Shown: positions 14,002 through 53,373, counted from the first letter of the stretch. The stretch: 64,000 nt of DNA from an uncultured delta proteobacterium (GCA_963733195.1 CAVTCR010000065.1:78010-142009); one strand, 5' to 3'. The notes: generated from the letters alone by a model not told the origin. Numbers and translations: made by a program.

Positions 14002-14034
14002 ACTGAGAACAACTAAAATTAAAAGGAGACTCCT

Positions 14035-18210: not shown

Positions 18211-18349
18211 TCTTCCCTGGTGCATTTCGGGAAAAACTTGCTTCTAAAAGAAGGGAAAGATAGGAAGATCTTGCAGCCCGCGGTCTATAGCCTTAAGCCT
18301 TGCCCATGGTGACTATTGACTGCTCGATTATACAAAAGGAGGAGAAGTT

Positions 18350-30909: not shown

Positions 30910-31213
30910 TTTGTAAGCTCTTAGCTGCTCAGCTAGCAGCAACACGAAGAAAATTTCTCGATTTCCTCAGTTGTCTAGTTTGGCAATAGCAGGTCGAGGC
31001 TCATCTTTCCATGTCTTTGCTAAGAGCTGAGGGCTGAAAGTTGAATACAAAGCTGATATTACCTGAGTTCGGCTTCGTCGCTCCGATCTGGAAATACAAC
31101 GGATTATTGACAGTGTGCTGCCGCTCGATGACTCGCAATGCGCGTCAGGAATGGGGTTGGGAGCCCACGTATACACTAGTATTTCATCTCATTGATTCGG
31201 ATGGGTCTGATTT

Positions 31214-32913: not shown

Positions 32914-33966
32914 CTAAAAAATGCGATAAATGTCGGTTGCCTCGGTAAAGTTTTTTAAGTGCTGGCGTCCGACTTTTTCGACCTGATAGCGATTCTCGAG
33001 TCGCTGCACGGTCTCCGGACCGACCAAAATCTGATTGGTTGTTGCCGTTCCCGCGAGCCGGGCAGCCAGGTTTGTTACTGGGCCGCTCGCAGTGAAAGTC
33101 CAACGCGTACTGTGGAGCCCTTCGAAGCGTACAGAGCCGACCAAGGCGACGCCGGAGTTGATTCCCATGTGAATGGACAATGGCGGTTCACCGCTCGTCT
33201 GGTTCAAGACTGCGGTGGTCGCGAGCAGTGCAATCGCGGTCTCTACTGCCTTCTGTGAATGCAGACGGTGATCTGCAGCCTGGAAGATTGCCATAAAGCC
33301 GTCGCCAGCCGTTTCATTGATGTCACCTCCGGCTTCTTGGATATCGTCCAGGAACGCCGAAAAATAACGTTCTACTAATCGGTTCAGGGTGTTCGGAGGC
33401 AACTGTTCACTCAGGTGCGTATAATCACTGATATCGACAAACAGGACCGATACGTCGTATTCGTGCAAGGCAAGATCTGGTACTTGTGGGTTGGCGATGA
33501 CCAGACGTTTCACCATCTCTGGCACGAACTTAGCGAAGTGGTCTTTGATGCAGTGCAGCTCACCAACTTTGTTCTCCACCGCTCGCTTCCATCTCACGGC
33601 TGTTTGAATCCTGGCTTGTAACTCTCGGGGGTTCACTGGTTTGGTGAGGAAATCATCGGCTCCAGCCTCGATTCCCTGGATGCGGTCTTCCGGTGCGCCT
33701 AGGGCAGTCATCATCACAACCGGGATAAGCTGGGTTTCCACCTGCTCCTTCAAGCGGCGGCAGACGGTAAACCCATCCATGCCGGGCATCATGACGTCCA
33801 ACAGAATCAGGTCAGGAGTTTCAGATGCGACCTTTGCTAACGCTTCTTCCCCGCTTTTTGCACTTACTGTTTGATATCCTAGATCTTCTAGCTCCTGTTC
33901 CAGATAGTCGACGTTCAAAGGCACGTCATCGACGATCAGGATTTTAGGCGGCAGATTCATGTTCAT
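32914..33966 (-). CDS. Response regulator receiver + class III adenylate/guanylate cyclase
   Basis: ILIVDD, LLDVMMPGMDG, FLTKP; VLFVDIS, AGDGFMA, GPVTNLAARL. Confidence 0.92.
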   Translation of the reverse strand: MNMNLPPKILIVDDVPLNVDYLEQELEDLGYQTVSAKSGEEALAKVASETPDLILLDVMMPGMDGFTVCRRLKEQVETQLIPVVMMTALGAPEDRIQGIEAGADDFLTKPVNPRELQARIQTAVRWKRAVENKVGELHCIKDHFAKFVPEMVKRLVIANPQVPDLALHEYDVSVLFVDISDYTHLSEQLPPNTLNRLVERYFSAFLDDIQEAGGDINETAGDGFMAIFQAADHRLHSQKAVETAIALLATTAVLNQTSGEPPLSIHMGINSGVALVGSVRFEGLHSTRWTFTASGPVTNLAARLAGTATTNQILVGPETVQRLENRYQVEKVGRQHLKNFTEATDIYRIF

Positions 33967-33976
33967 ATAAATCAGG

Positions 33977-34015
33977 CGTAAAAAGAGAGAGAACAAAATG
34001 TTCATGGAGTGAACA
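33977..34015 (-). promoter_or_regulatory. Conserved upstream motif, copy 3
   Basis: Plus strand CGTAA-aaagagag-AGAACA-aaa-TGTTCA-tggag-TGAACA. Confidence 0.65.
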
Positions 34016-34172
34016 ACGGAGGGAAGCACTCAGCCGTCAGCTTTCAGCTTTTACTGGAGTCTTGAGGTCCGCCTCTTTTGGCTGACCACTGACTGCTGAT
34101 CACTGAGTACTTCTTCTGCTGGCTGGCTGCTGAGAGCTAATAGCTGAATGCTTGCTTGGAGGGCAGAAGAAT

Positions 34173-34547
34173 CTAGGGACCGGGGCGTACCCCAAGATAC
34201 TGGGCCAGTTTCTGAAACAACAGTTCTTCATCGAGTGGTTTACTGAGGTAGTCATCACAACCAGCCTGTCGGGCTTTTTCCTCATCCCCGCGCATGGCGT
34301 GGGAAGACAGAGCAATAATCGGAATACGCTGGAGCGTGGCATTGGCTTTGATACGGCGAGTGGCTTCCCATCCATCGATCCCAGGTAATGAGAGATCCAT
34401 GATAATCAGATCCGGCTGTTCACGTTCGGTTGTCGCGATTCCAGTTGCACCATCAGGGGCGGTGAGAACTTTGTAGGTGTCCTCTAGAAGTTGAACGAGC
34501 AGGTCACGGTTGAAGTCGATGTCTTCGACAATCAGGATGCGTTTCAT
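34173..34547 (-). CDS. Single-domain response regulator (DivK/CheY-like)
   Basis: ILIVED, IMDLSLP..DGWEA, AGCDDYLSKP. Confidence 0.93.
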   Translation of the reverse strand: MKRILIVEDIDFNRDLLVQLLEDTYKVLTAPDGATGIATTEREQPDLIIMDLSLPGIDGWEATRRIKANATLQRIPIIALSSHAMRGDEEKARQAGCDDYLSKPLDEELLFQKLAQYLGVRPGP

Positions 34548-37500
34548 GTGTTTCCACTTTCTGCTGATAGCGATTGTTGCTTGTGATAGACGACTGGAAC
34601 GGTAACCGTAAACGTTGAACCCTTGCCAAGATCACTCTCGACTGCAATTGATCCGCCTAACAACTCGGCCCACCGTTTAGCAATTGGCAATCCCAGCCCC
34701 GTGCCTTGGCGTCCCTGCGCCTCCTGGGGTAACTGTTTGAACTCTTCGAAGATATCCTCAAGGGCCTCAGCGGCGATGCCCACCCCGGTGTCAGCAACAG
34801 CAATCACGAGTCGTGCTTCGCCTCGCGCCCACTCTACTTGGCGCGCACGAACCACCACTTCGCCAGCTTCGGTAAACTTAATCGCGTTGCTCAAGAGATT
34901 GAGCACGATCTGTCGCAGTCCGTCTTCGTCTGTATACGCTTGCCTGACCTCGTCGGAAACCTCATGCCGCAGTTGTACCCCCGGTTTGACTAGGGGAACC
35001 ACGGTATCACAGCACGTCTGAATAAATCGCTCGATAGCGAAATCGATCGGACGCACCTCCATCCGCCCCGCTTCGATCTTCGAGAGATCAAGAAGATCGT
35101 TGATAAGATTGAGCAGGTGGTCGGCGCTCTCTTTGACTTTGACCAGATTGTCCCGCTGACGCTCTGGGAGTACATCTCCGGTCCGCCGCAAGACGAGGCG
35201 AGTGAAACCAATAATGGCATTCATCGGCGTGCGTAGCTGGTGCGACATCCCAGCCAGGAACTGTGATTTCCGTCGGGTCACTTCCATGACCTGCTGATTG
35301 GCCATCTCCAGTTCCCAGTTCTTCTCCTCTAACGCCCGTGTCCGTTCTTCGACCTTCTGTTCCAGGGTCTTACTGTAATCTGCTAACTGCGTGTTAGTCT
35401 CTTCGAGACTTCCGTACAGACGGGCATTCTCGATCGCAATCGCTGCCTCAGCACCTAACAGGTGCAAAACCTCCAACCGATCAGGGGTAAAAGCTCCCGT
35501 GGTCAGATTGTTCTCCAGATACAGAAGGCCGGTGAGTTTGCCCTGTGCAACAAGGGGCGTGCATAAGATAGATTTTGGTTGTACTGCACTAATGTACGGA
35601 TCAGTTGCGAATCTTGCTTCCTTTGTTGCATCAGTCAAGACAACCTGCTCCTTCATTCTTTCGACGTAGCGGAGAATGGCAAGCGGCAAGTCATTCTGCG
35701 TTTCCACTGGAACAGATTGCAGGGTTTGTACTTCGCTGCGTTCAATCGCCTTTTCGGCTTCGATGACCAAATGTCCATCTTTTTCGAGGATAAGAACGCC
35801 TCTTTGCGCCCCCGCATTTTCAATCATGAGGGCCATCAATTTAGTGAGGAGTTTATCCAGGTGAATCTCGCTCGAAATAGCCTGCGAGGCGTGAAGGATA
35901 CTGGTGAAGTCGAAAGCGTTTGACAGCCGTTGCTCAGTACTGGCAGTAAACATGCCCCCTCCAGATTGAGAAAAACTAGGGCTAGTGTGAGCAAGAAGTT
36001 GAGGATAGCGGGTTTCTAAGTCTTTAACCTTTGCTAACGCACCCCAGCGCACATAGGCATAGTGAGCATCTCGCAGATAGTGTTGCGCAAGTCGGACTGG
36101 CCTCTGGCCAGATAAAATTTGCCGCCAGTTCATTGGCTAAGGCTTCTTCGTTGACATATTCATGTCTTGCGCCAGATCGATGGCTTGGTCGTAGTATTCT
36201 CTGGCATCGCGATCATTCCCCAACACCCGCGCACGTTCCGCTTCCACCAGATAGAATTTATGCAGATAAGTTCATCGGGGCGTGCTGCGCCCAGAGCTTC
36301 ATCTTTTCCTGGTTGGCCGCAACCTTTTCAAGGATGCTTTTCTGTTCAGACTCCTGGTGTCGGGAAATATGGCCAGCCTGGCCAGGGAATCGTACAAGTG
36401 AAAGGCGGGAACAGCCGCGGTTCCGACTAAACTATCCAAATACTTTTCTGCTACGGCCGCATGTTCAATGGCTTGGGCGTATTCTTGAAACAGATGACAG
36501 AGGACGAGTTTGGTAGATATATGTGGCAAATGGTATTCTCATCGTTAGCTTTAAGTCGAAGAGGTAGATGTAGTCTCCTCGTCGTAGCTTTCACCGATTA
36601 ATTGGCATGGATTTTTAGCTCGCCCCAGCAAATTTAGGAAAACTTGCCTATATAATTCATTGAGATTCAGAGCATGACCTTGCTTGAGTTGGCGTATAGC
36701 ATCATTGTATTTTGTCATCTCCTGTTCTAGCCCGGTCAGTCCATGCCCATCCAAAATGCCTGAAAACCGTAGCCTTGCAAGTTGAAGGCGGCAAAAATCA
36801 GATCGCCGGTTTCCAGCCCTATTTGATATCCTTCCAGAAAAGGTGGAAGCGTTTCTTTAATATGTTCCTTCCAGTGCCGGATGAAGGCATTCACCATGTA
36901 GGTGACACTCGATTTGAGCCCCCGTGCGTTGAGCCGTTCTACCAGGTTCAATGCTAAGGTGCCGAACTGATAGCCAGCATCGATATCTCCTACTGCTCCA
37001 CAGAGAATAATCCCATACGTGGCATATGCTTGGGCCGAAAGAGGTATATTGCCACGTTGCGCCGACAAATTAACCATACGAAACACAATGAGGGGAAAGA
37101 GCTTAGGGAACGCTACATACGAAGGATGCAGCGTAGCTGAGAGAATGCGCATTTTGGCTATTGCATACGGATCCGTCATGGCTGGCAGATGAAGAAGCTC
37201 TTCGACGCACTTGCCGGCCAGAACTTGCCTTGTCTCTTCGAGACCGCGCAAAATATCTGCCTGGCTCGGCTCCTCAGGGAGCCGCTCCCCTAATAGCTCC
37301 AGAACCTGGAGGCCTGTCTTCAATCCTTCCAAAGATTGCTCTGGGCGGAAGAGGCATGGAGCATCACTTCATAGGCTCTGACTCTATCTAACGGAGCTTT
37401 CGCCCATCGCAGCACGAGTGCGGTCAAGTGCTCCATCTGCTGAAAGTCGCCGCTGAGATAGGCGGCTTCTGCGGCCTCGACATGAAGCGTTAACGCTAGT

Positions 37501-39866
37501 TCATACTGTTGCTCCCAAGCGTCTTCCGGTAACAACTCCAGACCAGATTGGAAATACCTGAAGGCGGGCTCGTAGGCTGCTGCCGCTTTTGCTTTCTTCC
37601 CAGCCGTCAAGTTTAAGGCCGCCAGTTCATTTTGCTGCCAGGGGTGTCGTATCGACTCTCTCCCTGAGTTCAGATGGTTAGCAATCAGAAAAATCTTTGC
37701 CTCCTGCTCGTCTTGTGAAGTTCGGCGCAAGAGCAGTTGCCCACCTGCCAGTGAACCGCTTGCTTATCCGCTGAGGGAATGAGGGAATACACTGCTTGCT
37801 GAATACGGTCATGGGCAAACTTGTACTCCACCGAGACTTCATCAAAGAGCCCCTGTACGTCAAGGCCTGCCAATGTGTACGCATCACCAAGAGGGAGAAC
37901 GAACCCGTCTGCGAGGGCTGGCCACAGCTCCGTGGCGGTCTCCGAGAACGACTTTTCATAGACAGTGGCGAGGGTGCGCAGATCGAACTGGTTGCCTAGG
38001 CATGCCGCCAGCTTCAGTACCTCTTGCGTCTCTACGCCGAGTTTTTGTACCTTGCCAACCATCAATTCGACGACATTGTCGGTGATATTCTGTGCACGAA
38101 TGTGCGCCACATCCCACTGCCACTCACGCCTCTGGGTATCGAAGGCGAGGAGTTCCGCTGTGGAAAGCGATTTGAGAAACTCAGCGACGAAGAAGGGATT
38201 CCCAGCAGTTTTGGCCAGCACCAGTTCCGCCAATGGTGTAGCCTTTTCTGGCGGACAGGTCAGGGTGTCAGCAATGAACTGCTGGAGGTGCGGGAGGTCT
38301 AACGGGCCTAGGGCAATATGATTGACCATTCCTCCCTCTTTGCGAATGTCGTTCACCGTCAACTGTACTGGGTGGGCTTCTGTCACCTCGTTATCGCGGT
38401 AGGCGCAGATGACAAAGAGATAGGAATTCTCCGCGTGCGGTCAGCAAAAGTTGCAAGAGGTGTAACGACGCACTGTCAGCCCACTGCAGATCGTCGAGAA
38501 AAAGGATCAACGGCCGGTCAGGTCCGGTAAACACGCGGACAAAATTCTGGAAGGCCAGGTGCAAGCGATTTTGCGCTTCTGCTGGTGGGCGGGGGGAATC
38601 GCAGGCTGTGGCCCAACAATCAGTTCAACTTCAGGGATGACATCAATTACAACCTGGAGGTTAGGCCCAAGGGCGACAATCAAGGCATTTTTCCAAGCAG
38701 TGATCTGCTCCTCACTTTCTGTTAGGATCTGTTGGACCAGAGCGCGAAAGGCTTGGGCCAAAGCGGCGTACGGAATGTTTCTCTGGAATTGATCAAATTT
38801 CCCCGCAATGAAATATCCACGTTGCTGTGCCATGGGTCGGTACACTTCCCGCACTAGGGCGGTTTTGCCGACACCCGCAGAACCGGACACCAACATAAGC
38901 TCACGAGCGCCCTGGCTGACGCGGGTAAACGCTCTCACTAAGGTATCGATATCTTGCTCGCGCCCGTACAGCCTTTGCGGAATCTGGAGTTGCGCTCTTA
39001 CTTCCTGCTGACCAAGCGAGAAAGCAACAATCTCTCCTGTCGTTTGCCATTGCCGCAGGCATTCCTGCAAATCGGCAATGAGTCCAGGGGCCGATTGATA
39101 CCGATCCTCAGCATTCTTCGCTAACAGCTTCATCACAACCGCAGAGAGAGGAAGGGGAATCTCTGGTACCAATTCATGCGGTGGGGGTGGCTGCTGCGCA
39201 ATATGCGCATGGACAAGGGCAAGTGCATCCGTCCCGAGAAAAGGCACGCGACCGGTCAGTAACTCATAGAGTGTGACACCTAGCGAGTAGAAGTCAGTAC
39301 GATAATCCACCACGCGATTCATGCGTCCAGTTTGCTCTGGCGACATGTAGGCAAGCGTTCCTTCTAAACCAGTAGGGTGTTGGAAAGGGGAATTTTCGCG
39401 ACTGAGCTGCGTAGCAATGCCGAAGTCGATCAACTTGAGCTGCCCCGTTTGCAGATTTAGCACGAAATTCGTAGGATTCACGTCTTTGTGGATCACCTGC
39501 TGCTGGTGCACTTGCTCAACAATATCGATAAGCTGGATTGCTAGAGGCAGGAGCGTCGTGAGGGGAACTCGACCATTCCGTAGAAGCTGCACCAGCGACT
39601 CGCCGCCGAAATCTTCTAATACCATGACTGGACGATGCTGGTCAGCGGTGAGCTCGTAGGCGCGAATGACTCCTGGCAGTTGGAGGCTGCAGAGCAACTG
39701 GTATTCGCGCCGAAAAGCGGCGAGCTTTCGTGGCGAGGGGTATTCTTCTCTAAGCGTTTTGAGAATGACAAACTGCGGCTCTGCTTCCTTGCGCACGGTA
39801 GATGAGCGAGAAGCGACTCTCATAGATTTTTTCCTTAACCTGACAAACCGCAATAGTCGTGATCAT
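34544..39866 (-). CDS. Ser/Thr kinase + AAA ATPase + TPR + GAF + histidine kinase, copy B (frameshifted)
   Basis: [65 protein letters not shown]. Confidence 0.9.
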
Positions 39867-39949
39867 TGTTGGGATCTCGCGCCTGTTGCAATCCTATGCT
39901 CGACGAAGCGACATGGTCTGATGACCTTATAAACCGTTACTATTCACTC

Positions 39950-40085
39950 TACAAACAATATATTAAAGCTCGACGCGGTCTATCAGTTGCGTTGCGCTTC
40001 GGCCCGGCCTTATGCAGCGTGCGACAGTGGTGCACAATCACCTCACCGGCCAAGACCGGACACGCAACAGCTGAGTCTCCACCCC
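39950..40085 (-). pseudogene. Degenerate 3' remnant of a PhyH dioxygenase
   Basis: Translates to SAVACPVLAGEVIVHHCRTLHKAGPKRNATDRPRRAL, homologous to 45864-46010. Confidence 0.8.
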
Positions 40086-40161
40086 CCGCCGTTCGTGCGC
40101 ATGGCGCACGCTACGAGGGACAGGCCAATGGAGCACCTGTACGAATCTCGTGTGGTCTGAT

Positions 40162-40537
40162 TTAGGGACCGGGACTCGCCCCGAGAAACTGGGTCAGTTT
40201 CTCGAACAACAGTTCTTCGTCGAGTGGTTTACTGAGGTAGTCATCGCAACCGGCCTGTCGGGCTTTTTCCTCGTCCCCCCGCATCGCATGTGAGGACAGG
40301 GCGATAATCGGGATATGCTGTAGCGTCGGGTCGGCTTTGATCCGGCGGGTGGCTTCCCAGCCATCGAGAACTGGCAATGAGAGGTCCATGATAATCAGGT
40401 CCGGGATGTTCACGTTCGGCTGACGTGATCCCGGCTGCTCCATCATTAGCAGTGAGGACTTCGTAGTTATCCTCTAAAAGCTGCACCAGGAGGTCCCGAT
40501 TAAAATCTACGTCTTCGACAATCAGAATCCGTTTCAT
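40162..40537 (-). CDS. Single-domain response regulator, paralog of 34173-34547 (one frameshift)
   Basis: [17 protein letters not shown]... IMDLSLPVLDGWEA...AGCDDYLSKP. Confidence 0.9.
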
Positions 40538-43500
40538 TAGTCCGCACTTTCTGCACAGCGATTTCTTGCGGCTTTCGGTAGACGAGCGGAATCGTAACGG
40601 TAAATGTCGAACCTTTTCCAGGCTCACTCTCTACCGTAATTGATCCGCCCAGCAGTACAGCCCACCGTTTGGCAATCGGCAATCCCAGCCCCGTGCCTTG
40701 GCGTTCCTGCGCATCCCGGGGTAATTGTTTGAACTCTTCGAAGATATCCTCAAGAGCCTCGGCGGCGATGCCGACCCCGGTGTCGGCAACGGCAATCACG
40801 AGCCTTGCTTCGCCGCGCGCCTGCTCTACTTGCCGCGCACGAACCACCACCTCGCCAGCTTCGGTAAACTTAATCGCGTTGCTCAAGAGGTTGAGCACGA
40901 TCTGTCGGAGTCCGTCTTCGTCCGTATATGCTTCCCTGACCTCGTCGGAAACCTCATGCCGCAGTTGCACCCCCGACCCGACAAGGGGAGACACCGTCTC
41001 ACAACATGTCTGAATGAAGCGGTTGACATCGAAAGATTCAGGACGCACCTCCATCCGCCCCGCTTCGATCTTCGAGAGATCCAGAAGATCGTTGATAAGA
41101 TTGAGCAGGTGGTCGGCGCTCTCTTTGACTTTGACCAGATTGTCCCGCTGACGCTCTGGGAGCACATCTCCGGTCCGCCGCAAGACGAGGCGAGTGAAAC
41201 CGATAATGGCATTCATCGGCGTGCGTAGCTGGTGCGACATCCCAGCCAGGAACTGCGATTTCCGTCGGGTCACTTCCATGACCTGCTGATTGGCCATCTC
41301 CAGTTCCCAGTTCTTCTCCTCCAACGCCCGTGTCCGTTCTTCGACCTTCTGTTCCAGGGTCTTACTGTAATCTGCTAACTGCGCGTTAGTCTCTTCGAGA
41401 CTTCCGTACAGACGGGCATTCTCGATCGCAATCGCTGCCTCAGCACCTAACAGGTGCAAAACTTCCAACCGATCAGGGGTAAAAGCTCCCGTGGTCAGAT
41501 TGTTCTCCAGATACAGAAGGCCGGTGAGTTTGCCCTGTGCGATAAGGGGCGTGCATAAGATAGATTTTGGTTGTACCGCACTAATGTACGGATCAGTTGC
41601 GAATCTTGCTTCCTTTGTTGCATCAGTCAAGACAACCTGCTCCTTCATTCTTTCGACGTAACGAAGAATGGCAAGCGGCAAGTCGTTCTGCGTTTCCACT
41701 GGAACAGATTGCAGGGTTTGTACTTCGCTGCGGTCAATCGCCTTTTCGGCTTCGATGACCAACTGTCCATCTTTTTCGAGGATAAGAACACCTCTTTGCG
41801 CCCCCGCATTTTCAATCATGAGGGTCATCAATTTAGTAAGAAGTTTATCCAGGTGGATCTCACTCGAAATAGCCTGCGAGGCGTGAAGGATACTGGTGAA
41901 GTCGAAAGCGTTTGACAGCCGTTGCTCGGTACTTGTAGTAAACATGCCCCCTCCAGATTGAGAAAAACTTGGGCTACTGTGAGCAAGAAATTGCGGATAG
42001 CGGGTCTCTAAGTCTTTGACCTTCGCCAGCGCTCCCCAGCGCATGTAGGCATAACGAGCATCGTGCAGATAATGCTGGGCAATCGGCTCTTGGCCTCTGG
42101 CCAGATAAAATTTGCCGCCAGTTCATTGGCCAAGGCTTCTTCGTTAACGTACTCATGTTTCTTGCGCCAGATCGATGGCTTGGTCATAGTATTCTCTGGC
42201 ATCCCGTCATTGCCCAAGACCCGTGCACGTTCGGCTTCCACCAGATAGAATTTATGCAGAAAGTTCATCGGGGCGTGCTGCGCCCAGTTCTTCATTTTCT
42301 CCTGATCAGCAGTGACCTGTGTGAGAACGTCTCTTGTCGGATACCGGAAGGTCAGACAATATGGCCAATCTCGCTAAAGAACTATGAAATAGAGACGGGA
42401 ACGTATGGCCGTCCCCGGCACTCCCTCTAAATAATTTTCTGCTTTATCGGCATGGGCAATGCTTGAGGAAATCGTGAAACATATAACACAGCATCAATTT
42501 GTGGAGTAAATTAGGGATAGCGCATTCCTGTTATTTGCTTCACAGAAGAAGTGGAAGTTTCGTTTCCTCATTGTAGTTGTCGCCGATCAATCGACAGGAG
42601 TCTGAGACAGGGGTGGTAAATTCAAGACAATTTGATGGTGCAGGGAAATTAAATTAGAGACAGTTTCCTGCTTCAGTTGATCCGCAATCTCACTGTATTT
42701 CGATATGCTATGTTCTAGCTCTGCCAATTTCTCACCGCTCCAATACGCCTTGAAAGCAATAGTCGAACGCCGCCTGGGTCCAATACTTACATCCCCTGTC
42801 TCTAAAGCAATTCTGTATGCCTCGAGTGAAGGTTTTAAGGTATCTCTAACATGTCTTTCCAAAGTCTGACAAACCCGTTGACCATAAATATAGCACTCGC
42901 TTGGATCTCTTTGGCATTGAATCGCTCCCCAAGGGTCAAAGCGAGTTGACCAAACGATAGCCGTGTCAATATCTCCCAGCGATCGTAGATAAAATAAACC
43001 CGTAAGAAGCATACGCTCGGGCCGAATGGGTGTATTGCCATACCACCGATAATTTGACTACGTACACACAATGAGGGGAAAGAGATCAGGCGCGCCAATG
43101 TAGGCGGGGTGAAACAGTCGCATCAGGATCTTCATTGCTGCCAATTGATAGGGATCTGTCATCTCGGGTAGATTGAATAGGTCTTCGATTTTTTTCCGAC
43201 CAAAGCTCGCTGTGTTTCCTCCAACCTTGAAAATATCTTCTTGGCTCGGTTTTTCAGGAAGCTGTATCCCCAACAATTCCAAGACCTGTAGACCGACTCT
43301 AATTCCCTCTTGTTTATCCTGTATAGCATAAGTGGCATAGACGTATCTCGTACACTTTCACTTTGTCGAGCAGAGTTTTGGCTTGTTGCAGGACAACATC
43401 AGTCAATCGCTCCATCTGCTCATAGTCGCCGACAAGGTAGGCTGCTTCCGCCGCCTCGGTATGAAGTGCCAGGGCCAGGTCGTACTGTCGCTCCCAGGTA

Positions 43501-45827
43501 TCTTCCCCTAACAGACTCAAGCCAACCTGGAGATAATCGAGGGCCGGCCCATATGCCGCTTCTGCCTTTGCCTTTCTGCCGGCTATGAGATTGAGCTCTG
43601 CTAACTCATCCTGCCTTGCCTGTTGGCGAGCCAATCGCGTCCCAGATTGAGATGGTTAACAATAGCAAAGATCTTTTGCTCGCGATCGTCTGCTACACAT
43701 TCTGCAGGAGCAGTTGACCTATTTGCCAGTGTACACCCTGTTTGTCCGCGTCGGGAACAAGGGAATAGGCGGCGTGTTGGATTCGGTCATGGGAAAACTG
43801 GTACTCAACCGTCACTTTCTCCGCCAACCCTTGAACATCGAGATTCATGAGCATGTAGGCACTCCCCAGAGGCGAGACCAAACCTTCTTCCATCGCATCC
43901 CACAAATCAGCCGCGGTTTCTCTAGCAGAATGCTCATACACGATTGCGAGCGTTTGCAGGTCAAACTGATTACCCATACACGCTGCTAACTTCAAGAACT
44001 GTTGTGTTTGCTGCCGAGCTTTTGCATCTTTCCGCCATTAGTTCGACGACATTATCGGTTATATGTTGCGCCCGAATATGCGCGAAGTCCCACCGCCACT
44101 CACGCTGGAAATCGAACGTCAATAGCCCCTCAGTGTAAAGCGATTTCAAGAACGCATGACAAAAAAAGGATTCCCGTCGGTCTTGGCGAGCACCAATTCT
44201 GCCAACGGACGGCCTCCTCTTTGGTGCACTTGAGTGAGTCAGCAATCAACTGACACACGTCAGGAATCCAGCGGTTGCAGAACAATATGATTCACAACCT
44301 GCCCGCCTTTCTGAATCTCGTCGAGCGTAATTTCAACGGATGGGCTTCGTCACTTCGTTATCCCGATACGCACCGATAACAAACAGATAATGGTTTTCCG
44401 GCGCAGTCATAAAGGGTCGAAGCAGATTCAGCGAAGCAGAGTCGGCCCATTGCAAATCGTCGAGGAAGAGTACAAACGGACGTTCGTCCTGTAAACACGC
44501 GAATGAAGTTCTGGAACACCAGGGTAAAGCGATTTTGCGCCTCTGCCGGAGGAAGGCGGCACGGCCGGCTGCGGGCCAACAATCAGTGCGATTTCAGGAA
44601 CGAGGCCAACCATAACCTGACGATTCGGTCCGAGTGCGGCGAGCAGTTTCTCTCGCCACGCGGCAATCTGACTCGCTTTCTGTTAATAGCTGCCGCATCA
44701 GAGACCGAAAGGCCTGCGTTAACGGTGCATAAGGAATTTCTTGTGGAATTGATCGAATTTGCCTGTGATAAAGTACCCTCGCTGTCGTGTAATTGGCTTA
44801 TAGACTTCCTGCACCAAGGTGGATTTGCCAATGCCAGCGTGTCCGGAAACAAGCATCATTTCGCCGGCTCCCTGGCTGACGCGCGCAAAAGCGGTCAGGA
44901 GTGTCTAATATCTCGTTCGCGTCCGTACAGCTTTTGCGGGATACGAAATTGGTCCGCACGTCCTGCCCGCCAAGCGGAAAGAGATCAATCGCCCTCTCGC
45001 TTGCCGTTGCCGATGCATTCCTCTAGGTCTGCCTTCAGGCCATACGCCGACTGGTAGCGATCTTCGGCATTCTTCGCCATCAGTTTCATCACGATAGCGG
45101 AGAGAAGCTTGAGGAATGTCAGGGAGGAGCTCGTGGGGTGCACGAGGTTGCTTGGCGAGATGGGCGTGCATGAGTTCCAATGCATCGACGGTCGGAAAGG
45201 GTAATTGTCCTGTCAGCAATTCATAGAAACTGACACCGAGCGAATATAAATCGGTCCGATAGTCCATGGTCCGGTTCATACGCCCGGTTTGCTCCGGCGA
45301 GATGTATGCTAACGTTCCTTCCCCTACCGTCGGGTTACGCACGATCTGGATTTTCGCGTGACAGGACTGTGGCAATACCAAAGTCGATCAGTTTGACTTG
45401 GTCCGTTTGCGGATTCCACACGATATTGGAGGGATTCACATCTTATGCATCACATGCTGCTGATGCACGTGGCTCAAAATGTCAGCGATCTGAATGGCCA
45501 GCGGGAAGAAACTCGGCTGGCAGGGAATCGTCTTTGTCTCTTCTTCAGATGCAGTTCGAGCGACTCACCGCCAAAATCCTCTAGCACCATGACGGGACGG
45601 TGCTGATCAGTTGTCAGGCTATAGGCGTTGATGACCCCTTCCAGTCGAAAGCTCCGGGTCAGTTCGTACTCCCGTCTGAACCAGGCAACTTTTTCCGGCG
45701 GAGGGTAGGGCTGTTTCAGGATTTTAAGGATGACGGACTGCTCTTCCTCCTCCCGACGACCGCGATAGATGAGCGAGTGTTCACTCTCATAGATCTGTTC
45801 CTGAACATGGTAGCCTGCGATAAGCAT
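40537..45827 (-). CDS. Ser/Thr kinase + AAA ATPase + TPR + GAF + histidine kinase, copy A (heavily frameshifted)
   Basis: Kinase motifs ([17 protein letters not shown]), FSHDRIQ, and a GAF/HK C-terminus nearly identical to copy B. Confidence 0.88.
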
Positions 45828-45863
45828 GGGTATCTCTCGGACCCTCGACTGGCTGCGATCTTT

Positions 45864-46545
45864 CTAGCAGTCTCCTATCACTTGACAGACGACCACTAAT
45901 GCTCGACGAGGCTTATCAGTCTTATTAGGCCCGGCAGAATGTAAGGTGCGACAGTGATGAACGATAGCCTCGCCAGCCGCCACCGGACAGGCGACAGCTT
46001 CCGAGAATTCGACATTCTCTGCCACAAGATGATCATCATGGGGATGATGCGGGAGGACGTCTCCCAAATGCGAGCGCCCTATGTAAGAGAGACAACCTAC
46101 TTTCGGACGTTGCAGGGTCTAATGGCATCCATACACTAGCGCCGTGATACGGAGGTGGACGATACGCGGCGTCTTGGTGCCAGGGAGTCTCACTGCCGTG
46201 GGCTGGTTTGCAGAATATGCGCCATCCATTGAGAAGGTGTGTTTCCTCGACGTCGAGAAGACGTGCAACCGCCTTGCGTGCGTTCCGCAAGAAGAGCGTA
46301 CTTTTCAATGCAGGAACCACTCCTTCGGGTGACAGAATTGCTACCAAGGCAGGAGGTGGGTGTCCACCAAGCAAAAGAGTTAACTCCTCCGGAGTATACC
46401 CTTTCCTCTGCTTGCAAATCATATCGTAGGCATCTTTAAGCCACGCAAGTTCCTGGTCAGTGGTGACGCGACCGAGGTTGAGGAATCCCTGTTCTTGGAA
46501 ACAACGGACGTGTTCATCTCTTAAGTCAATACAGGCGTCTTCCAT
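45864..46545 (-). CDS. PhyH-family Fe(II)/2-oxoglutarate dioxygenase (one frameshift)
   Basis: KPAHGSETPWHQDAAY (HxD), VWMPLD, HHCRTLHSAGPN..PRRA. Confidence 0.88.
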
Positions 46546-46593
46546 GTTCCGTCGTCTCCTTATTCCTGTGGGCTAAGGTCTGCATGTGAACGA

Positions 46594-48865
46594 CTAGAAA
46601 AAAAAGTGCCGAGGGTTCAACTGGTCTTCGGCCAAGGGGTTGCACCCGCCAGCCCATTTGTACAGGCACCTCATAGAGTCGGCCACGAGCAAACCGAGGC
46701 CAAAAGTGTCGTAACCCTGGAACAATAACCTTTACGACATGAAGTCCAATGTCCGGTCGGGTCTGGTCCAATACCAGTGTTTCAAGCCCTTTCTGTGCGG
46801 CACTCCCTACGCAGGTCATTACATCCACATAGAGATCATCAGTCCACTGCCGAGGATAGTCACGCTGTTTCTTCGGAGCCAAAGTCTCGTCAGGCATCAA
46901 ATAGGGTTGGTTTTCGCGGGTAGCAGTTTTCCACCATGAAATCGCCTCGGGGTCAGCGGACAGATATTGTCCGTCTTGTGCAGGCGAGCAAGGGGACACA
47001 GCCGGCAGCAATTGATTCACTTCCGTCAGGGCGCGAAGAAGAGCGATGTATGGGTCAAAGTGAGTACCGAACCCCAAAAGAATGTCTTCAACCTCCTTAT
47101 CGTTTCGGCGTGAGATCGCGGCAAAGGCGGGGATGTTGAAATCGCTTGTGATATCCAGCACCCACAAGTCGCGATGTAGTATCTTGTAATAGTCTTGCAG
47201 TTCCTGGAAGTATGGTTCGGAAAAACTGGAAAGATCTACCGCCGGTTTTTGTAAGCGGTTGTACCACCATAACGCGACACAATCACGCTCTATGAGTTCC
47301 ATGAAGCCCTGGAGTATGGCTTCTTCTTTGCTGTGGCCAGCGGCGCATCCGTTTGAATCTGCACGGGCGAACCAACTATAGTGCTTTCGCGAATACCCGT
47401 AGTAGCAGTAAGCGGTTGGAACGTAACGCGGTTCGCCATGGGTCAGCGACCACACTGGACTCCACTCGATCTCTTGAGCATCCTCAAAGGGCTCTGGCAC
47501 CCAACTCGACGGAGAGCCAATCGCATTCCAGGCTTTACGATCCTTCAACTGGGTCTCACTAAAAAGCATACAGTCACGAGGATGGATAGCCGCGCCGCCG
47601 AAATCTTTGAGCCTGGCGCAGAATACGGGCTTCGTCACCCTGAAAGACACCCGAGTAGCGTTCAATGGCTTCACATAAGGCACTGGCTTTGGCTTGGCTA
47701 GAATCCTGCCCTTGCCGGCTGAAGCATCACGCAAAGTTGCCTGAAGAAAATCCATGTCCCAGGTGTAATCTTTCGACGCATGAATAAAATTATGACCCGT
47801 GACATAGGACAGCACCAAGCCATGCTCTCCCATCCATGGTGTAGTCGGCTGAATCGTGTGCACGATGCCAGAGATGGACTAATGTGATGCTCAAGCTTCT
47901 TGAGTGTTTCTTCAGGGGAAAGGGTGCGATGTCCACCGTCAATGGTAAACACCTTCTTCCGGCTTTGCAGTATTATTGGCGCAGCTTGTCCAGATGCAAA
48001 AGCGGTCGGATCGCCACAGTGCGAGCACTGAGATCGTCGTACCACTGTATGACTACGTCGTGCCAACGAAAAAGAAGGTTGACAGAAACAACATGACTTT
48101 CGAGGTCTTCATTTCGTCCACGAACAATCCACTTGGCCGTCTCGGTTGCAGCGATGTTAAGCGCCGTGTGGATCGTTGGAAGGGAGAGCTGCCACAGCGC
48201 GAGCCATTGGGGGAGCAACATTCAACTTTTCTTGTACATAGCTTTCGACTTTACGAGCCCCGCGGAGCCGGTGGGCAAGGCACGCCCAACAGGCTGTCTT
48301 GCTGGAAGAAAGAGCGGCCCTAGCCACACCTCTGTCCCCACCGGTTTGACTAACAACCACGGGCGGTCACTGGCGAGAGCTTGTCGGTTGAATGTCTCCA
48401 AATCTGGGTGCAGGTAATCCTTGGTGAGAACGACCCAGTATTCCCCATTGTCCACGACTCGAACACCGAGTGACGTCAGAATCGTACGGAAGGGAAGAGG
48501 ATCGATGTCGCCACAGGAGATAACGGAGACAGGCACTTCCTGCAGACGCCTGGCAGCCTTTTCTGCGCCCCCATCAAACATGTCCCAGAAGGCCGCTTGC
48601 TCCAAGGGGAGAGACAGGGGTTCATCAACAAGATAACCCCTGCTACGTAACCTCATGAGGGCCGAGAAGATCTCCGAGGCAGGAAACTCATCCTGTAGGC
48701 GATTGATGATCTCATCGACCATGTGTTGACCGTTGAGAAGTGGCACCAGATAAGTGTACACGCCGCTGCGAAGCGGGACGTGTCCCTGTTCCGACAAGAG
48801 AACACGCCTTCTCCAGGAACAATCGCCCAACGAAACCACGGCTTGAATTGCGGTCGGGGGATCAT
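46594..48865 (-). CDS. TOMM leader-binding (RRE/ocin-ThiF-like) + YcaO cyclodehydratase fusion (frameshifted)
   Basis: PWLLVKPVG..WLGPLF...TACWACL..RL; DGGHR..PEETL; SNGCAAG; ELIERD; RALTEVNQ; DQTRPDIGL.VVKV.VPGLRHFW.RF..GRLY.VPV. Confidence 0.9.
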
Positions 48866-48929
48866 GGCTTCTCGGCTCCGTCGTCTTCTCATAGCCAAAC
48901 CGCCGAAAAGATCTATGCTCTCCGCGGGG

Positions 48930-49227
48930 TCAGCAGGTCAGCCGAAGAAAGAACTTAAAAAGAAGCGCTGCTGTACCATCTATGATACTTAGGAGCTGAG
49001 CATCAGAAAAATCGCGAGGGAGCAGGCGGATTAAACAATCTCAAAAAGACTATCAAGTAAGTAATATCAACATTAGCGAGATTTAATATTGCGGCGCATT
49101 TTCTTTGACCGCTTCATTGGGATCTGTCTCGAATAGGTCTTTGAAAGACGCATCGTTGTCAAGCTTGACTACTTCACCAGATAAACGCATATATTCGACC
49201 CCAATCGTCTGGCTTTATCGCTGTCAT
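48930..49227 (-). CDS. Putative NHLP-like RiPP precursor 2 (frameshifted)
   Basis: AGGGAG RBS; joined frames give MTAIKPDDWGRIYAFIW..DNDASFKDLFETDPNEAVK...RDFSDAQLLSIIDG-TAALLFKFFLRLTC*. Confidence 0.65.
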
Positions 49228-49239
49228 AATCGAGTCTCC

Positions 49240-49653
49240 CTGTGAAAAATAGCAAATTACTGACCTAACTGAACCAAGCGCATTAAGACTTTCTACAAAT
49301 AGCTCTCTTAAAGTAGAGCTACTTGCCCTATACCGTACCAGAAAGACCTCAGGGGACTTCTTCAGCTCATTATGCAGTATTGATTTGCCGTTCATGATAA
49401 TGGCCAAAAGCTGGGGGCAGTCATCTGGCTAAATTTCGTCTCTCCTTGCGCGAAAATATCGTCTTCATAGAACTCTATGTTGGGGATCACAGGATGAGGA
49501 AGAGGCCCGCCGAATTGCCCCTGAATCTGCCGATATGCTAGAAGCGGGTCGGTTTCGAGTTTCACTTTGAAGGAAGGATCTGTGCCAGCCTCCCGTAATA
49601 GCCTTGGCCCATGCTCGGGCCCAATACTTTCTCTCTAGGTCTCCGTTTGCCAT
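49240..49653 (-). CDS. Putative NHLP-like RiPP precursor 1 (frameshifted, 3' end uncertain)
   Basis: AAGGAG RBS; MANGDLERKYWARAWAKA..EAGTDPSFKVKLETDPLLAYRQIQ...QLLAIIMNG; paralogous to precursor 2. Confidence 0.6.
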
Positions 49654-49700
49654 AGCTCTTCTCCTTTCTTCCGCTAGGTTTCATCGCCTATGGGCCGACA

Positions 49701-51322
49701 TTATCCGTTCATCGCCTTAATGGATGGTGCAAAAAAGTAGCCGCCTCCTGTGGGGATTACCCAACGAGGCTGCGGTAAAGCCACTTCTTCAGTACCATCT
49801 CCAAACGCAATGCGAAACTTCCGAGGGAGGTTTCTATTATTTTGCCCGATGATCGGATCGTAACCTGGCTCCTTCTTATCTCTGAACCAAGAAGAATTCG
49901 CTACGTGTTTGTATATGTTCAAATTGATTTTCAATCGAGGTTTGGTAAGCAATGAAGAAGAGACCTCGGTCAACGGTATCGTCGATAGGGTCAGTAAATG
50001 TTGAGAGGGACCGCGGGCCGTACGGAATCCCGCGACGTAGCAGGCGGTGAGTCAATGTTTCATTTGTATCTTGATCGTCGCGGGGATTAGTCCTGCGTAT
50101 ATGAGAGGCAAAGGGGCAAACTTTTCCGTCAGGATCATCCTTTTGAAACTCGAAGGCGTTAATTCTAGGGTCCTTTTGAACTATATCTTTGCTATCCTTT
50201 TTAGGGTCGGAGAAAATTGGGGCTCCGTTCAGCCCGGCGACCAACACACATTTCGCCGAATTGCTGGGCTGTAAACTTGTATTGCTCGGCTTTATCTTTG
50301 TATTGCTCGGCTTTATCTTTGTATTGCCTGGCTTTATCGTGAAGAAACTTGTGGAAAGCTCCTACGTCCTGCCGTAGGCGGCGGATGACAAGGAAAGAAC
50401 CATTCCTGGCGAATTCCCGAATTTTATCATCAATCGCATTGAGGGAGTTTGTCCCTTCGTTCTTAGAATTCGTTGGATCTTGCCTAGGATACCCGAAGAC
50501 AAACTCGCCTGGCCACACGAGCTTCTGTCCGGGTTTGCCTTCATCTTCAGCAAGGGGGTCTTCACAGGGAGAGAGATAGTCATCTTTAGCGGGGGAGGGC
50601 TTCTTTGAGAACCTTCCTCGCACGCCTGGCTGTGATATTCCGTCACGAAAGCCAAAGTGCTCGTGTCCAGTGAATGGCTCAGGCAGGTTGGCGCCGTGCT
50701 GCTTGAAGATGATCCGGACACCGCTCCAGTCGGGCATCTCCTCGTTCGTTTTTGGCAGCGCGTATGTATAGATGCTGTCCTCGATACGGGCTACTTCATT
50801 GTACAGGTCAAGCTGATCGTCGCTTGCGACGATCAAGACGATGTCTGCTTCGTTCTTTGGTCCTCCTACTACCCAGGTTCGCTGGGTCCCCTTCTCTCCC
50901 ATCTATTGGGTCGCCGAGAATTTCCTTAGCCCGCTGCCAAAGCCCTGCCGGAAAAGGCGTATCCTTAAAGTCCCCATCTTTTTGAAGTCACTTCTAGCTT
51001 CCCAGGAGCGCAGAGTGCGAAAACGCGATATTTAGCCAGGTAGTTCTTCTTTGGGGGGCTTCCCCTGCCGCTTCCTTCTTTCGTAAGTAAACGTCCGAAA
51101 GCAAGCACCTGTTCCATAGTCGTAAGGGATAGAGTTCTCAGCCAGCGCCTGAAACTTATTCCCCATCCTCAATCTTCAGGAAAAGAAATGCCTGAAAGTC
51201 TTTGTTAAACCCGGGAATGATGTTGCCCTGGATATTCTTAATGTCGAGTACTGGCTCGTTAGCGTTGTTGTTCAGATAAACCCATCCTCTCGTTGATAGT
51301 AGATATGGTCATGTTCAGGCAT
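49701..51322 (-). CDS. Dyp-type heme peroxidase (frameshifted)
   Basis: IQGNIIPGFNKD, EHFGFRDGISQP (GxxDG), NGSFLVIRRLRQDV, CPFASHIRRTNPRD, LLRRGIPYG, GGGYFFAPSI. Confidence 0.9.
50277..50339. repeat. In-frame 21-bp tandem repeat x3 inside the Dyp gene
   Basis: ttgtattgctcggctttatct x2 plus one variant; encodes DKARQYK DKAEQYK DKAEQYK. Confidence 0.85.
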
Positions 51323-51349
51323 GGGATTTTCTCCTTCTTTTCAATAAGG

Positions 51350-51390
51350 CGTAACAACACCCTGAACAAATTGTTCATTTCGACTGAACA
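51350..51390 (-). promoter_or_regulatory. Conserved upstream motif, copy 4 (in front of the Dyp-RiPP operon)
   Basis: Plus strand CGTAA-caacaccc-TGAACA-aat-TGTTCA-tttcgac-TGAACA. Confidence 0.72.
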
Positions 51391-51411
51391 ATTAAAAAAG
51401 AGCAGCAATAA

Positions 51412-52404
51412 TCAGAGCTGCCACGGGCTTGGGAGGTTGAGGTTAGGGATATAGGAACAGGACATGCCAGTCTTAATTGTGGTCTTCAGATGGAGCCACA
51501 ATTCTGGATCAAGGGGCTCAATCTTCTGCAAGGCGGCATCGATGGCGCGCTTGACGTTGACCCGCGCTCTTTCAATGTGGGCTCCGTCGAATCTATCGTG
51601 ACCATTCATTCCAACCGCGTGGCGCAGTTGATCCTGCAACGCGTCAATTTCCTGCTCGATTCGCTCAGCTTGCTGCGGGTTATTTCTCTTTGCCGCTGCC
51701 AAGGTTTCTTGTAACTCGTTCAGTCGTTGCCAATAGGCAGCCTTGGCCTTTGCATCAAGAACTTCTCCTGCATGACCAAGGTCTTCATGAATGCTTCCCT
51801 CAGGAAAAACTTCTCGGGACCCCTCGCCAATGGCAGTCGTATCTAAGTCGCGAACATGGATAGCGCGGTGTGGGTGGCGAAGGAGATAGGCAATATGGTG
51901 GAGACCTTTGCTATCCCTCAAGCGATTCACTTTTCCCTTATAGGCAACCGTCCAAAGCTCTCCTTCTTTATGGAAGACTCGGGTGGGTGCCGTATGTTCT
52001 TGAATTCTCCGATCAATCAGCTGTTTGTGGGTTACAGCGCTGCGAACACGGGCGAGAAGTTCGCGATCATCGACAGGTTTAGTAAGGAAGTCATCTGCAC
52101 CAGCCTCGATTCCTCTCACCCGATCTTCTATTGCCCCAAGGGCAGTCATAATGATGACTGGAATCAGCTGTGTGTCTTCTCGCTCCTTCAAGGCACGACA
52201 GGCCGAAAAGCCATCCATCTCAGGCATCAGCACATCAAGGAGGATAACTGTGGGTGAATGGGTCACCGCCTTTGCCAAGGCTTCTGTGCCGTTGGTTGCG
52301 CTGACGGTCTGATAGCCTTGCTCTTCGAGTTCCTGCTCTAAGTAATTAATGTTATTGGGCTCATCATCGACGATGAGGATCGTAGCTGTTGAATGTATGG
52401 CCAT
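51412..52404 (-). CDS. Response regulator with a putative C-terminal DNA-binding/output domain
   Basis: Receiver domain (ILIVDD, LLDVLMP, FLTKP) + FHKEGELWTVAY..LRDSKGL...ERARVNV.RAI..AL..I...TG..CSY. Confidence 0.85.
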   Translation of the reverse strand: MAIHSTATILIVDDEPNNINYLEQELEEQGYQTVSATNGTEALAKAVTHSPTVILLDVLMPEMDGFSACRALKEREDTQLIPVIIMTALGAIEDRVRGIEAGADDFLTKPVDDRELLARVRSAVTHKQLIDRRIQEHTAPTRVFHKEGELWTVAYKGKVNRLRDSKGLHHIAYLLRHPHRAIHVRDLDTTAIGEGSREVFPEGSIHEDLGHAGEVLDAKAKAAYWQRLNELQETLAAAKRNNPQQAERIEQEIDALQDQLRHAVGMNGHDRFDGAHIERARVNVKRAIDAALQKIEPLDPELWLHLKTTIKTGMSCSYIPNLNLPSPWQL

Positions 52405-52724: not shown

Positions 52725-53147
52725 CTAGTTACGAGCGCCGAGGGACACGCCGAGTTGTTGCAGGAGACCCAGCGCATCCCAGTTAATCCACATTTCCTTA
52801 AGCTTGCCGTTGGCGATGTGACACGTCATCGTGCCCGTGGTCGTTGCCTGTTTCCGGGTTGGTGCGATCCCCATTATCTCTCCCAGGTGCGTGCCATGGG
52901 CGGTCCAGCGCCACACCACGATATCGTTTTCGGCAATCACTTCCTCGACGGTGTACTGCAGATCAGGAAATGCGTTGCGGACCATTGCGTTGTGTTGCCT
53001 GACGCCGTCGGAGCCGTGGATGTCTGCTCCAGTCGGATCGTGACCGATGAAACCTGGGGCGATCAGCTCATCGGTGAGCGCCGCGTTCCCTTTGTTCAAT
53101 ACCTCTTCGATATAACGACGGACCAGAGTTTTATTCGTAGCTGACAT
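52725..53147 (-). CDS. SnoaL-like ester cyclase
   Basis: NKTLVRRYIEEV, AFPDL, GTHLGE.MGIAPT, WDALGLLQQLG; AGGAGG RBS. Confidence 0.88.
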   Translation of the reverse strand: MSATNKTLVRRYIEEVLNKGNAALTDELIAPGFIGHDPTGADIHGSDGVRQHNAMVRNAFPDLQYTVEEVIAENDIVVWRWTAHGTHLGEIMGIAPTRKQATTTGTMTCHIANGKLKEMWINWDALGLLQQLGVSLGARN

Positions 53148-53175
53148 ACGAGTACCTCCTTTCCTGTTGTTTAGG

Positions 53176-53373
53176 TTACTTTGTCATGTCTGACCGCAAG
53201 CGGCGTAAGGTGGCGAAGGCGAGCTGTTCGGTTTTCCGAGAACTGACCCCGGGACTGGTAGGGACTGGAAATGACTTTCCGGTCGTCCAGGCGAGCAGCC
53301 AGGCCTGCAGAGCCGGTTTGTTGATGATGACACTCTTATCTTTGTGTCCTATCTGACTGGGGGGTAACATCAT
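53176..53373 (-). CDS. Small hypothetical protein
   Basis: AAAGGA RBS; lies upstream of the ester cyclase on the same strand. Confidence 0.5.
   Translation of the reverse strand: MMLPPSQIGHKDKSVIINKPALQAWLLAWTTGKSFPVPTSPGVSSRKTEQLAFATLRRLRSDMTK

Follow-up and report, generated by a model that had tools for sequence, protein, structure and literature searches.

An NHLP-Burk-type YcaO cassette linked to kinases in Binatia and its putative C-terminally modified precursor protein

Introduction

Canonical clusters for azol(in)e-containing ribosomally synthesized and posttranslationally modified peptides (RiPPs), such as those of the TOMM (thiazole/oxazole-modified microcin)/LAP (linear azol(in)e-containing peptide) and cyanobactin types, combine fused E1-like/YcaO heterocyclases with a SagB dehydrogenase. 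The NHLP-Burk systems were predicted from genomes by Haft, Basu, and Mitchell (2010; PMC2887384). The accessible portion of that paper describes precursors that are paired in tandem in Burkholderia and fused in Delftia and Acidovorax; one member ends in Cys or Cys-Cys, and the genes alongside encode cyclodehydratase-docking fusions together with a Ser/Thr kinase of large size. The corresponding NCBIfam family TIGR03903 is named TOMM system kinase/cyclase fusion protein. The accessible portion of a later survey (Cox et al. 2015; PMC4603692) adds no characterization of the NHLP-Burk systems, and our search of the literature on NHLP-Burk and on YcaO with DyP, peroxidase, or kinase found no report of a product, a purpose, or the variant considered here. 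We analyzed a 64,000-nucleotide stretch of DNA from an uncultured delta proteobacterium (GCA_963733195.1, CAVTCR010000065.1:78010-142009; hereafter, the window), which carries a related cassette centered on a fused YcaO enzyme and two small NHLP-like precursor modules (A and B). On balance, we favor the reading that this is a Binatia cassette of the NHLP-Burk type, in which a tail-modified protein is probably kept inside the cell together with its kinases and the frameshifts in the run are most likely assembly errors.

Conservation of the cassette and its partners

A stop-to-stop map combined with Pfam and NCBIfam scans confirmed the minus-strand gene run at 32914-52404 of the window. All of the elements that the first-pass annotation had listed for it are present, in the order response regulator, Dyp peroxidase, A, B, winged helix-turn-helix (wHTH)/E1-like/YcaO fusion, PhyH, kinase copy 2 with a receiver, kinase copy 1 with a receiver, and receiver-cyclase; that list, correct as far as it went, left out a PhyH 3' remnant lying between the two kinase-receiver units (Table 1).

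Relatives were collected by YcaO searches over 41 related genomes, a 400-genome phylum sample, public genomes (12 additional loci), and metagenomes (5 additional loci, scanned with a YcaO alignment). The same YcaO type was recovered at ~60% identity in genomes G001, G010, G018, and G022, all of which belong to the window's family; the best match in the same-genus genome G002 is only 25% identical, and the phylum sample gave YcaO matches of only 35 to 42% identity. The close public and metagenomic loci are Candidatus Binatia metagenome-assembled genomes. The counts over 11 loci given below cover the window and ten loci in which YcaO shares 56% identity or more with the Binatia reference (G001, G010, G022, G018, L018, L021, L030, L031, L032, and L033); the count over 15 loci used for PhyH adds L019, L020, L025, and L014.

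The gene order is well retained among these relatives. G001 has Dyp, a 274-aa precursor, YcaO, a 1774-aa kinase-His kinase protein, a receiver, and a receiver-cyclase; G010 has a response regulator, a 238-aa precursor, YcaO, a kinase-His kinase protein, a receiver, an animal-type heme peroxidase (PF03098), and a receiver-cyclase; G022 has a response regulator, a 251-aa precursor, YcaO, and the start of a kinase; and L030 has a precursor, YcaO, and the start of a kinase. A kinase-STAND gene follows YcaO in seven of the nine loci that continue past the YcaO stop codon (the window, G001, G010, G022, L030, L021, and L032), with one P450 gene lying in between in L021 and one amidohydrolase-like gene in L032. 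In the remaining two, G018 and L031, YcaO is followed by a SagB-like gene, and the contig runs on for no more than 2.2 kb; the contigs of L018 and L033 end inside the YcaO gene. The giant protein of L021, from Anaerolineales (1811 aa), is 57% identical over residues 1 to 1485 and carries a C-terminal Lys/Asp-type cyclase, and in L032 and L019, the C-terminal part of the kinase-STAND-GAF giant is a PP2C phosphatase. The L021 features described here are at 4076-7471 and 13731-19166 of its contig.

These searches reveal a conserved cassette with an invariant C-terminal [S/T/C]-Cys and recurring kinase, heme-enzyme, and PhyH partners. The first-pass annotation had allowed for homologous YcaO loci never co-occurring with such genes; we find that they do so with Dyp in four loci, with PhyH in four, and with the giant kinase-STAND protein in eight, spanning Binatia, Anaerolineales, a cyanobacterium, and Acidobacteriota.

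Precursor modules

For window module A, high-scoring segments were obtained against P0022 as well as against the L018 and L033 A genes. The first 17 residues of module B are 76% identical to L018 B2, its tail aligns with the endings ...TRLTC and ...VRLCC, its ATG is preceded by GGGAGA, and it is the sole match in the genome to a profile of B modules. An HHalign comparison in relatives shows the two modules to be paralogs (probability, 97.4%; E = 9e-12) that share the NHLP motif-1 region. They are separate genes in L018 and L033, which form the branch nearest to the window and the latter of which has the order Dyp-A-B-YcaO, and are fused in the precursors of G001, G010, and G022. A single fused open reading frame (ORF) was considered as the window precursor and was dropped for the split arrangement once L018 and L033 were known; the window assembly has no stop between A and B and is compatible with either. 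The description of this region as two small paralogous ORFs in the first-pass annotation holds up, by homology to the split genes of L018 and L033 and by the HHalign result. The Binatia contig of L018 (2-1481) carries two consecutive A/B pairs ahead of YcaO, with both B copies ending in ...TRLTC.

A terminal Cys is found in 18 of 18 aligned fused precursors, preceded by Ser, Thr, or Cys, usually after Leu; in split B genes, the final residues are ...RLTC or ...RLCC; and of the single-module relatives, four end in CC and one in TC. The single-module precursor of L032 ends in ...RFT, without Cys, and that of L021, a 106-aa module, ends in ...GTCC. No Gly-Gly motif was seen ahead of the tail in the alignments of fused and split precursors.

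Known families recover these proteins poorly. TIGR04509 reaches only 15.1 bits on the A/B region (49653-48930) against a cutoff of 34, and TIGR03793 (NHLP/proteusin; cutoff, 50.9 bits) has no match on the window pieces and scores 17.2 bits on P0022. P0006 and the fused precursors of G001 and G010 match no NCBIfam family, P0011 and P0022 have no match to TIGR03795, and the best TIGR03795 score anywhere is 19.3 bits, on the single-module L019 precursor. Among 1.84 billion proteins, a profile built from six fused precursors retrieved just 21 representatives. One compact fold is predicted for the fused precursor (predicted local distance difference test [pLDDT], 92.8; predicted template modeling score, 0.89). 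A Foldseek search of this model against the PDB gave no match at E <= 0.001, and the sole relevant match was a local one of 36 columns to the nitrile hydratase alpha chain (E = 5.3). A complex prediction of the fused precursor with the TPR-like sensor part (residues 640 to 1335) of the G001 kinase gave no verdict (score, 0.00).

The fused YcaO enzyme

The window YcaO gene, read in pieces, matches PF21084 (38.9 bits), TIGR03882 (51.4 bits), PF02624 (299.4 bits), and TIGR03604 (233.8 bits; cutoff, 219) and is ~60% identical to intact orthologs of 756 to 762 aa. The intact G001 ortholog scores 162.9 bits with TIGR03882 and 254.7 bits with TIGR03604. The window gene retains the stretches EAIERY and ELIERD, which we take to be the YcaO motifs.

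Heme enzymes, PhyH, and SagB

A 50-aa piece of the window Dyp matches PF21105 at 23.4 bits, below the cutoff of 27.5, and the tblastn pieces are 39 to 52% identical to the intact G001 Dyp, which itself scores 132.9 bits with TIGR01413 (cutoff, 100.5). Still readable in the window pieces are FGFRDG, SHIRRTNPR, and RRGIPYG, presumably the Dyp motifs with the catalytic Asp and Arg and the proximal His. A heme enzyme is present in 6 of the 11 loci, namely, Dyp in the window, G001, L033, and L032, an animal-type peroxidase in G010, and a P450 in L021.

The window PhyH, in which WHQD and HHCRTLH (which we take to be PhyH motifs) can be read, is 42 to 45% identical to the PhyH genes that come after YcaO and SagB in L020 and L025, where PhyH overlaps the SagB stop codon. 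PhyH occurs in 4 of the 15 loci: the window, L031, and, in the tier of 45% YcaO identity, L020 and L025. It is an accessory component.

In agreement with the first-pass annotation, which had noted no SagB, peptidase, or exporter in the run, no match to the SagB family (TIGR03605) at E <= 0.01 was found in the whole 93%-complete genome (G000). No locus has a heme enzyme and SagB together, many of the contigs being short. SagB-family genes are present elsewhere in the genomes of G001, G010, G022, and G018. Those at G001:C694, G010:C77, and G018:C469 and C62 are open frames of 516 to 543 aa on contigs other than that of the cassette, and in three of these four frames (G001:C694, G010:C77, and G018:C469), the SagB domain is matched twice.

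Signaling components

In G010 and G022, the gene immediately upstream of the precursor is an ortholog of the window response regulator (51 to 53% identical). The AlphaFold model of this regulator has a pLDDT of only 58.6, and the C-terminal domain retrieves only unnamed clusters in the ESM Atlas, at ~0.9.

Kinase copy 1 matches Pkinase (124.9 bits), AAA_16 (95.9 bits), GAF (59.5 bits), HisKA (78.7 bits), and HATPase (99.9 bits) and is the ortholog of the single G001 gene; the tblastn chain of copy 2 spans 1745 of the 1774 residues of the same G001 ortholog. Copy 1 retains HKD..N, DFG, SPE, and a GxGKT loop, which we take to be the kinase and nucleotide-binding loop motifs and which are invariant in the relatives. 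TIGR03903 reaches 172.7 bits on the G001 ortholog against a cutoff of 705.75, over the STAND/TPR part only.

The two kinase-receiver units (34171-39842 and 40160-45809) are 75% identical in nucleotide sequence overall and 59 to 71% identical over most of their length and are old paralogs. A tract of ~0.9 kb in the GAF-HisKA region (35064-35963) is 95 to 98% identical between the copies, which suggests gene conversion or assembly cross-talk. The PhyH remnant upstream of copy 1 aligns at 39964-40072 with 45897-45999 of the PhyH gene (71.6% identity in blastn), which marks an old tandem duplication of a PhyH-3'/kinase/receiver unit that started inside PhyH.

The receiver-cyclase had been called an adenylate cyclase. 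Of the residues expected in class III cyclases, both metal-binding Asp residues and the transition-state Asn and Arg are present in its cyclase domain (32917-33492); the specificity pair is Glu/Thr instead of Lys/Asp, with Glu at the position where adenylate cyclases have Lys. This Glu aligns with that of PDB 2w01, whereas CyaB (3r5g) has Lys there, and the G010 ortholog has the same Glu/Thr pair. The enzyme may thus form a product other than cAMP.

Gene organization, surroundings, and reading frames

Table 1. Features of the minus-strand run, listed in gene order, with the evidence for each
Feature	Coordinates	Strand	Evidence
Response regulator, 330 aa, intact; receiver and conserved C-terminal domain of ~200 aa	51412..52404	-	PF00072, 106.7 bits
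Dyp-type heme peroxidase; at least 3 frame switches	49704..51312	-	PF20628, 35.5 bits; PF21105, 23.4 bits
Precursor module A, NHLP-like, without C-terminal Cys; at least 2 frame switches; 3' end uncertain	49270..49653	-	Three-frame reading; high-scoring segments to A genes of relatives
Precursor module B, NHLP-like, ending in ...RLTC; at least 3 frame switches; presumed YcaO substrate	48930..49227	-	Match to L018 B2
Fused wHTH leader-binding/E1-like/YcaO cyclodehydratase; at least 7 frame switches	46594..48892	-	PF21084, TIGR03882, PF02624, TIGR03604
PhyH-family Fe(II)/2-oxoglutarate dioxygenase; 1 frame switch	45864..46545	-	PF05721, 34.9 and 51.4 bits
Giant sensor copy 2, Ser/Thr kinase-AAA16 STAND-TPR-like-GAF-HisKA-HATPase; 24 frame switches	40500..45827	-	tblastn chain; GAF/HisKA/HATPase matches on intact 3' part
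Single-domain receiver copy 2; 1 frame switch	40165..40537	-	87 to 89% identity to G001 receiver, in two frames
PhyH 3'-end remnant, upstream of kinase copy 1	39952..40110	-	Translation; blastn to PhyH
Giant sensor copy 1, same architecture as copy 2; 13 frame switches	34544..39866	-	Pkinase/AAA_16/GAF/HisKA/HATPase matches
Single-domain receiver copy 1, intact; 4-nt overlap with kinase stop	34176..34547	-	PF00072, 94.9 bits; 91% identity to G001
Receiver-class III nucleotide cyclase, 371 aa, intact	32914..34029	-	PF00072, 112.6 bits; PF00211, 72.9 bits

The components of the run are summarized in Table 1. Neither a peptidase nor an exporter was found in the run or among the ORFs annotated over 20 to 64 kb of the window, which encode STAND ATPases, a Zn-ribbon-cyclase-AAA16-TPR protein, a peroxiredoxin, an amidase, a SnoaL-like protein, and a DDE transposase. 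Just downstream of the run lies the intact 1086-aa Zn-ribbon-cyclase-AAA16-TPR protein, whose cyclase is of the Lys type, and upstream, there are several genes or gene fragments of the AAA16/TPR kind. Additional STAND genes densely populate the flanks (27685-30945, minus strand; 55394-58186, 59071-59715, 60217-60948, and 63323-64000, plus strand). The SnoaL-like protein (52728-53183) and the DDE transposase (PF01609/PF13808; 53788-54960), both on the minus strand, lie directly upstream of the cassette, and an AhpC/TSA peroxiredoxin is encoded at 27055-27654. Promoter and terminator scans gave counts at chance level (13 versus 14.5 and 20 versus 19.5).

Frame switches were counted from ungapped tblastn blocks against intact orthologs. 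The run has at least 54 of them, modules A and B together accounting for at least 5; none occurs in the response regulator, receiver 1, or the receiver-cyclase. No block requires an in-frame stop, since every stop within a block falls where a neighboring block in another frame takes over, and amino acid similarity is preserved throughout, reaching 92% in blocks. Elsewhere in this assembly, rpoB (G000:C71:137166-141235), which lies outside the window, is itself broken across three frames. Because this essential gene is also broken, indel errors run throughout the assembly, and gene calls in this genome need a frameshift-tolerant reading. For this reason, and because an in-frame stop is never required, assembly indels are a likelier cause of the frameshifts than gene decay.

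Proposed mechanism and alternative interpretations

We propose the following model. Modules A and B, which are nitrile hydratase like (separate in the window, joined in certain relatives), would be made and fold together. The fused leader-binding/E1-like/YcaO enzyme, with ATP, would then cyclodehydrate the C-terminal [S/T/C]-Cys of B (Thr-Cys here) to give one or two azolines; from the known chemistry of the YcaO family, the tail would then end in a thiazoline-carboxylate. The heme peroxidase, here Dyp, and the PhyH dioxygenase may oxidize or hydroxylate this tail. Since the cassette lacks SagB, a protease, and an exporter, the matured protein most likely stays in the cell, where it would work with the giant Ser/Thr-kinase/STAND/TPR/GAF/His-kinase sensors, and these would relay signals through the receivers to the nucleotide cyclase and to the response regulator. 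An intracellular role is plausible because no Gly-Gly motif, protease, or exporter was seen and because the coupling to the kinase is conserved. The tail azoline, its tailoring by Dyp and PhyH, its retention in the cell, and its coupling to the phosphorelay and cyclase are what we infer from domain composition and gene context.

We offer a more specific form of this model tentatively: the A/B protein, bearing a C-terminal azol(in)e-carboxylate oxidized by the heme peroxidase and hydroxylated by PhyH, might serve as a cofactor or ligand, perhaps redox or metal sensing, that switches the kinases, with the phosphorelay driving the Glu-type cyclase, possibly to make cGMP. Were this so, RiPP-type chemistry would be building a signaling component rather than an antibiotic.

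Several observations weigh against the reading that we favor. Dyp is absent from G010, and in G022, the 1.8 kb that precede the precursor showed none. The G010 peroxidase lies amid signaling genes and so may have a signaling role rather than one in tailoring, and PhyH is missing from G001, G010, and G022, the three closest loci that carry the kinase. The idea that heme enzymes take the place of SagB, true within the loci, fails at the genome level, given the SagB genes elsewhere in G001, G010, G022, and G018. Most of the related contigs are short, which makes absences weak evidence. In the six-frame search of G000, TIGR03795 had no match on the window precursor and gave only matches of 12 to 13 bits elsewhere; the TIGR03903 cutoff is likewise not reached. 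According to the accessible portion of one paper (PMC12537861), NHLP leaders are folded yet still cleaved, so the confidently predicted precursor fold does not make this protein the end product. As regards the frameshifts, their density is ~2.8 per kb here versus ~0.5 per kb in rpoB (~fivefold); a homopolymer origin, which we considered for them, fits only one of the nine sharply located sites; and kinase copy 2, at least, might genuinely have decayed.

The best-surviving alternative is that the cassette makes an ordinary secreted or cleaved RiPP of the proteusin or azoline type, with unlinked genes responsible for cleavage and export and with the kinases and cyclase regulating production or immunity. 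Large regulators are common beside biosynthetic clusters, and the more distant locus L014, with the same YcaO type, carries SagB, ABC transporters, and HlyD; NHLP-type leaders, moreover, are normally cleaved even though they are folded (PMC12537861, accessible portion). This fits less well with aligned precursors in which no Gly-Gly motif is seen, with a core that would hold just two modifiable residues, with the lack of a protease or exporter in the window run and in the full 20 kb around the G010 locus, and with a kinase module that remains attached across four phyla despite its changing output domain. We consider it unlikely, though it deserves to be kept in mind.

It is less probable still that the cassette in this genome is a decaying relic whose frameshifts are real and whose genes are nonfunctional. 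Such a history could explain the excess of frame switches over rpoB, their scarcity at homopolymers, the DDE transposase 1.4 kb upstream of the run, and the lack of the cassette in the same-genus genome G002, but it would leave at least 54 disruptions of which none needs an in-frame stop, an essential rpoB that is split likewise, and amino acid similarity that is retained all along, up to 92% in blocks.

Another possibility is a biosynthetic role for the Hanks-type kinase domain, which would phosphorylate Ser/Thr of the precursor in the manner of class III/IV lanthionine synthetases under the control of the STAND, GAF, and His kinase parts. The retained catalytic motifs, a penultimate precursor residue that is often Ser or Thr, and weak matches to the NCBIfam LanL and LanKC kinase domains (74.8 and 27.9 bits, far under the cutoffs) would accord with it. 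These matches, though, reflect general kinase similarity, there is no lyase or cyclase partner for phospho-elimination, and several members have Cys at the penultimate position, which together make this improbable. Finally, that the signaling genes are chance neighbors of a small YcaO operon, in a genome that has many STAND/AAA16-TPR and cyclase genes (the window alone holds four others), is hardly credible, as the adjacency recurs in eight loci from four phyla with spacers of 18 to 40 bp or a 4-nt overlap.

We therefore return to the reading of a tail-modified intracellular protein acting with its kinases. The comparative data tie the YcaO-precursor pair to one kinase-STAND-GAF module in Binatia, Chloroflexota, a cyanobacterium, and one metagenome contig, with the output domain swapped among His kinase, cyclase, and PP2C phosphatase while that module stays. 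A heme oxidase is found repeatedly, in three forms that are unrelated to one another (Dyp, animal-type peroxidase, and P450), and the invariant [S/T/C]-Cys at the C terminus restricts where the candidate substrate site lies. Taken together, these findings supply a concrete mass spectrometry test, and they raise the possibility of a signaling system with a posttranslationally cyclized protein tail as its ligand.

Comparison with known systems

Like the canonical azol(in)e clusters, including L014, L019, L025, and L031, the window cassette has a TIGR03882 plus TIGR03604 enzyme and an NHLP-type leader region. Unlike them, it lacks SagB, a protease, an exporter, and a Cys/Ser/Thr-rich core, and the candidate sites are confined to the final two residues of the precursor.

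Cyanobacterial locus L032 is closer. There, too, Dyp adjoins an NHLP-like protein, the YcaO is 58% identical, and the kinase-STAND-GAF giant is 43 to 48% identical. L032 differs in having a single-module precursor with the ...RFT ending, an amidohydrolase-like gene in place of PhyH, and a PP2C output in place of the His kinase, and its Dyp is only 27% identical and lies on the opposite strand.

With NHLP-Burk, the cassette shares a double NHLP-like precursor, tandem or fused, with one module ending in Cys (window B, ...RLTC); a fused cyclodehydratase-docking enzyme (TIGR03882 plus TIGR03604); and a large Ser/Thr kinase whose STAND part is homologous to TIGR03903, together with a nucleotide cyclase output. 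It differs in that its precursor falls below TIGR03795 (cutoff, 41 bits) and its kinase below TIGR03903 (172.7 versus 705.75 bits); in that the kinase carries GAF and His kinase domains rather than a fused cyclase, the cyclase being on a separate receiver protein that would be reached by phosphorelay; in that Dyp or an animal-type peroxidase is present, along with PhyH and one more response regulator; and in its lineage, which is Binatia and not Burkholderiales. The view of the first-pass annotation that this is an undescribed variant is therefore borne out in part: the two families that define the described system are not matched at their cutoffs, while the layout itself had already been described for NHLP-Burk in 2010, as set out in the accessible portion of PMC2887384. 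From these sequence comparisons, we class the cassette as a Binatia branch of the kinase-linked YcaO cassettes of the NHLP-Burk type, not new in kind.

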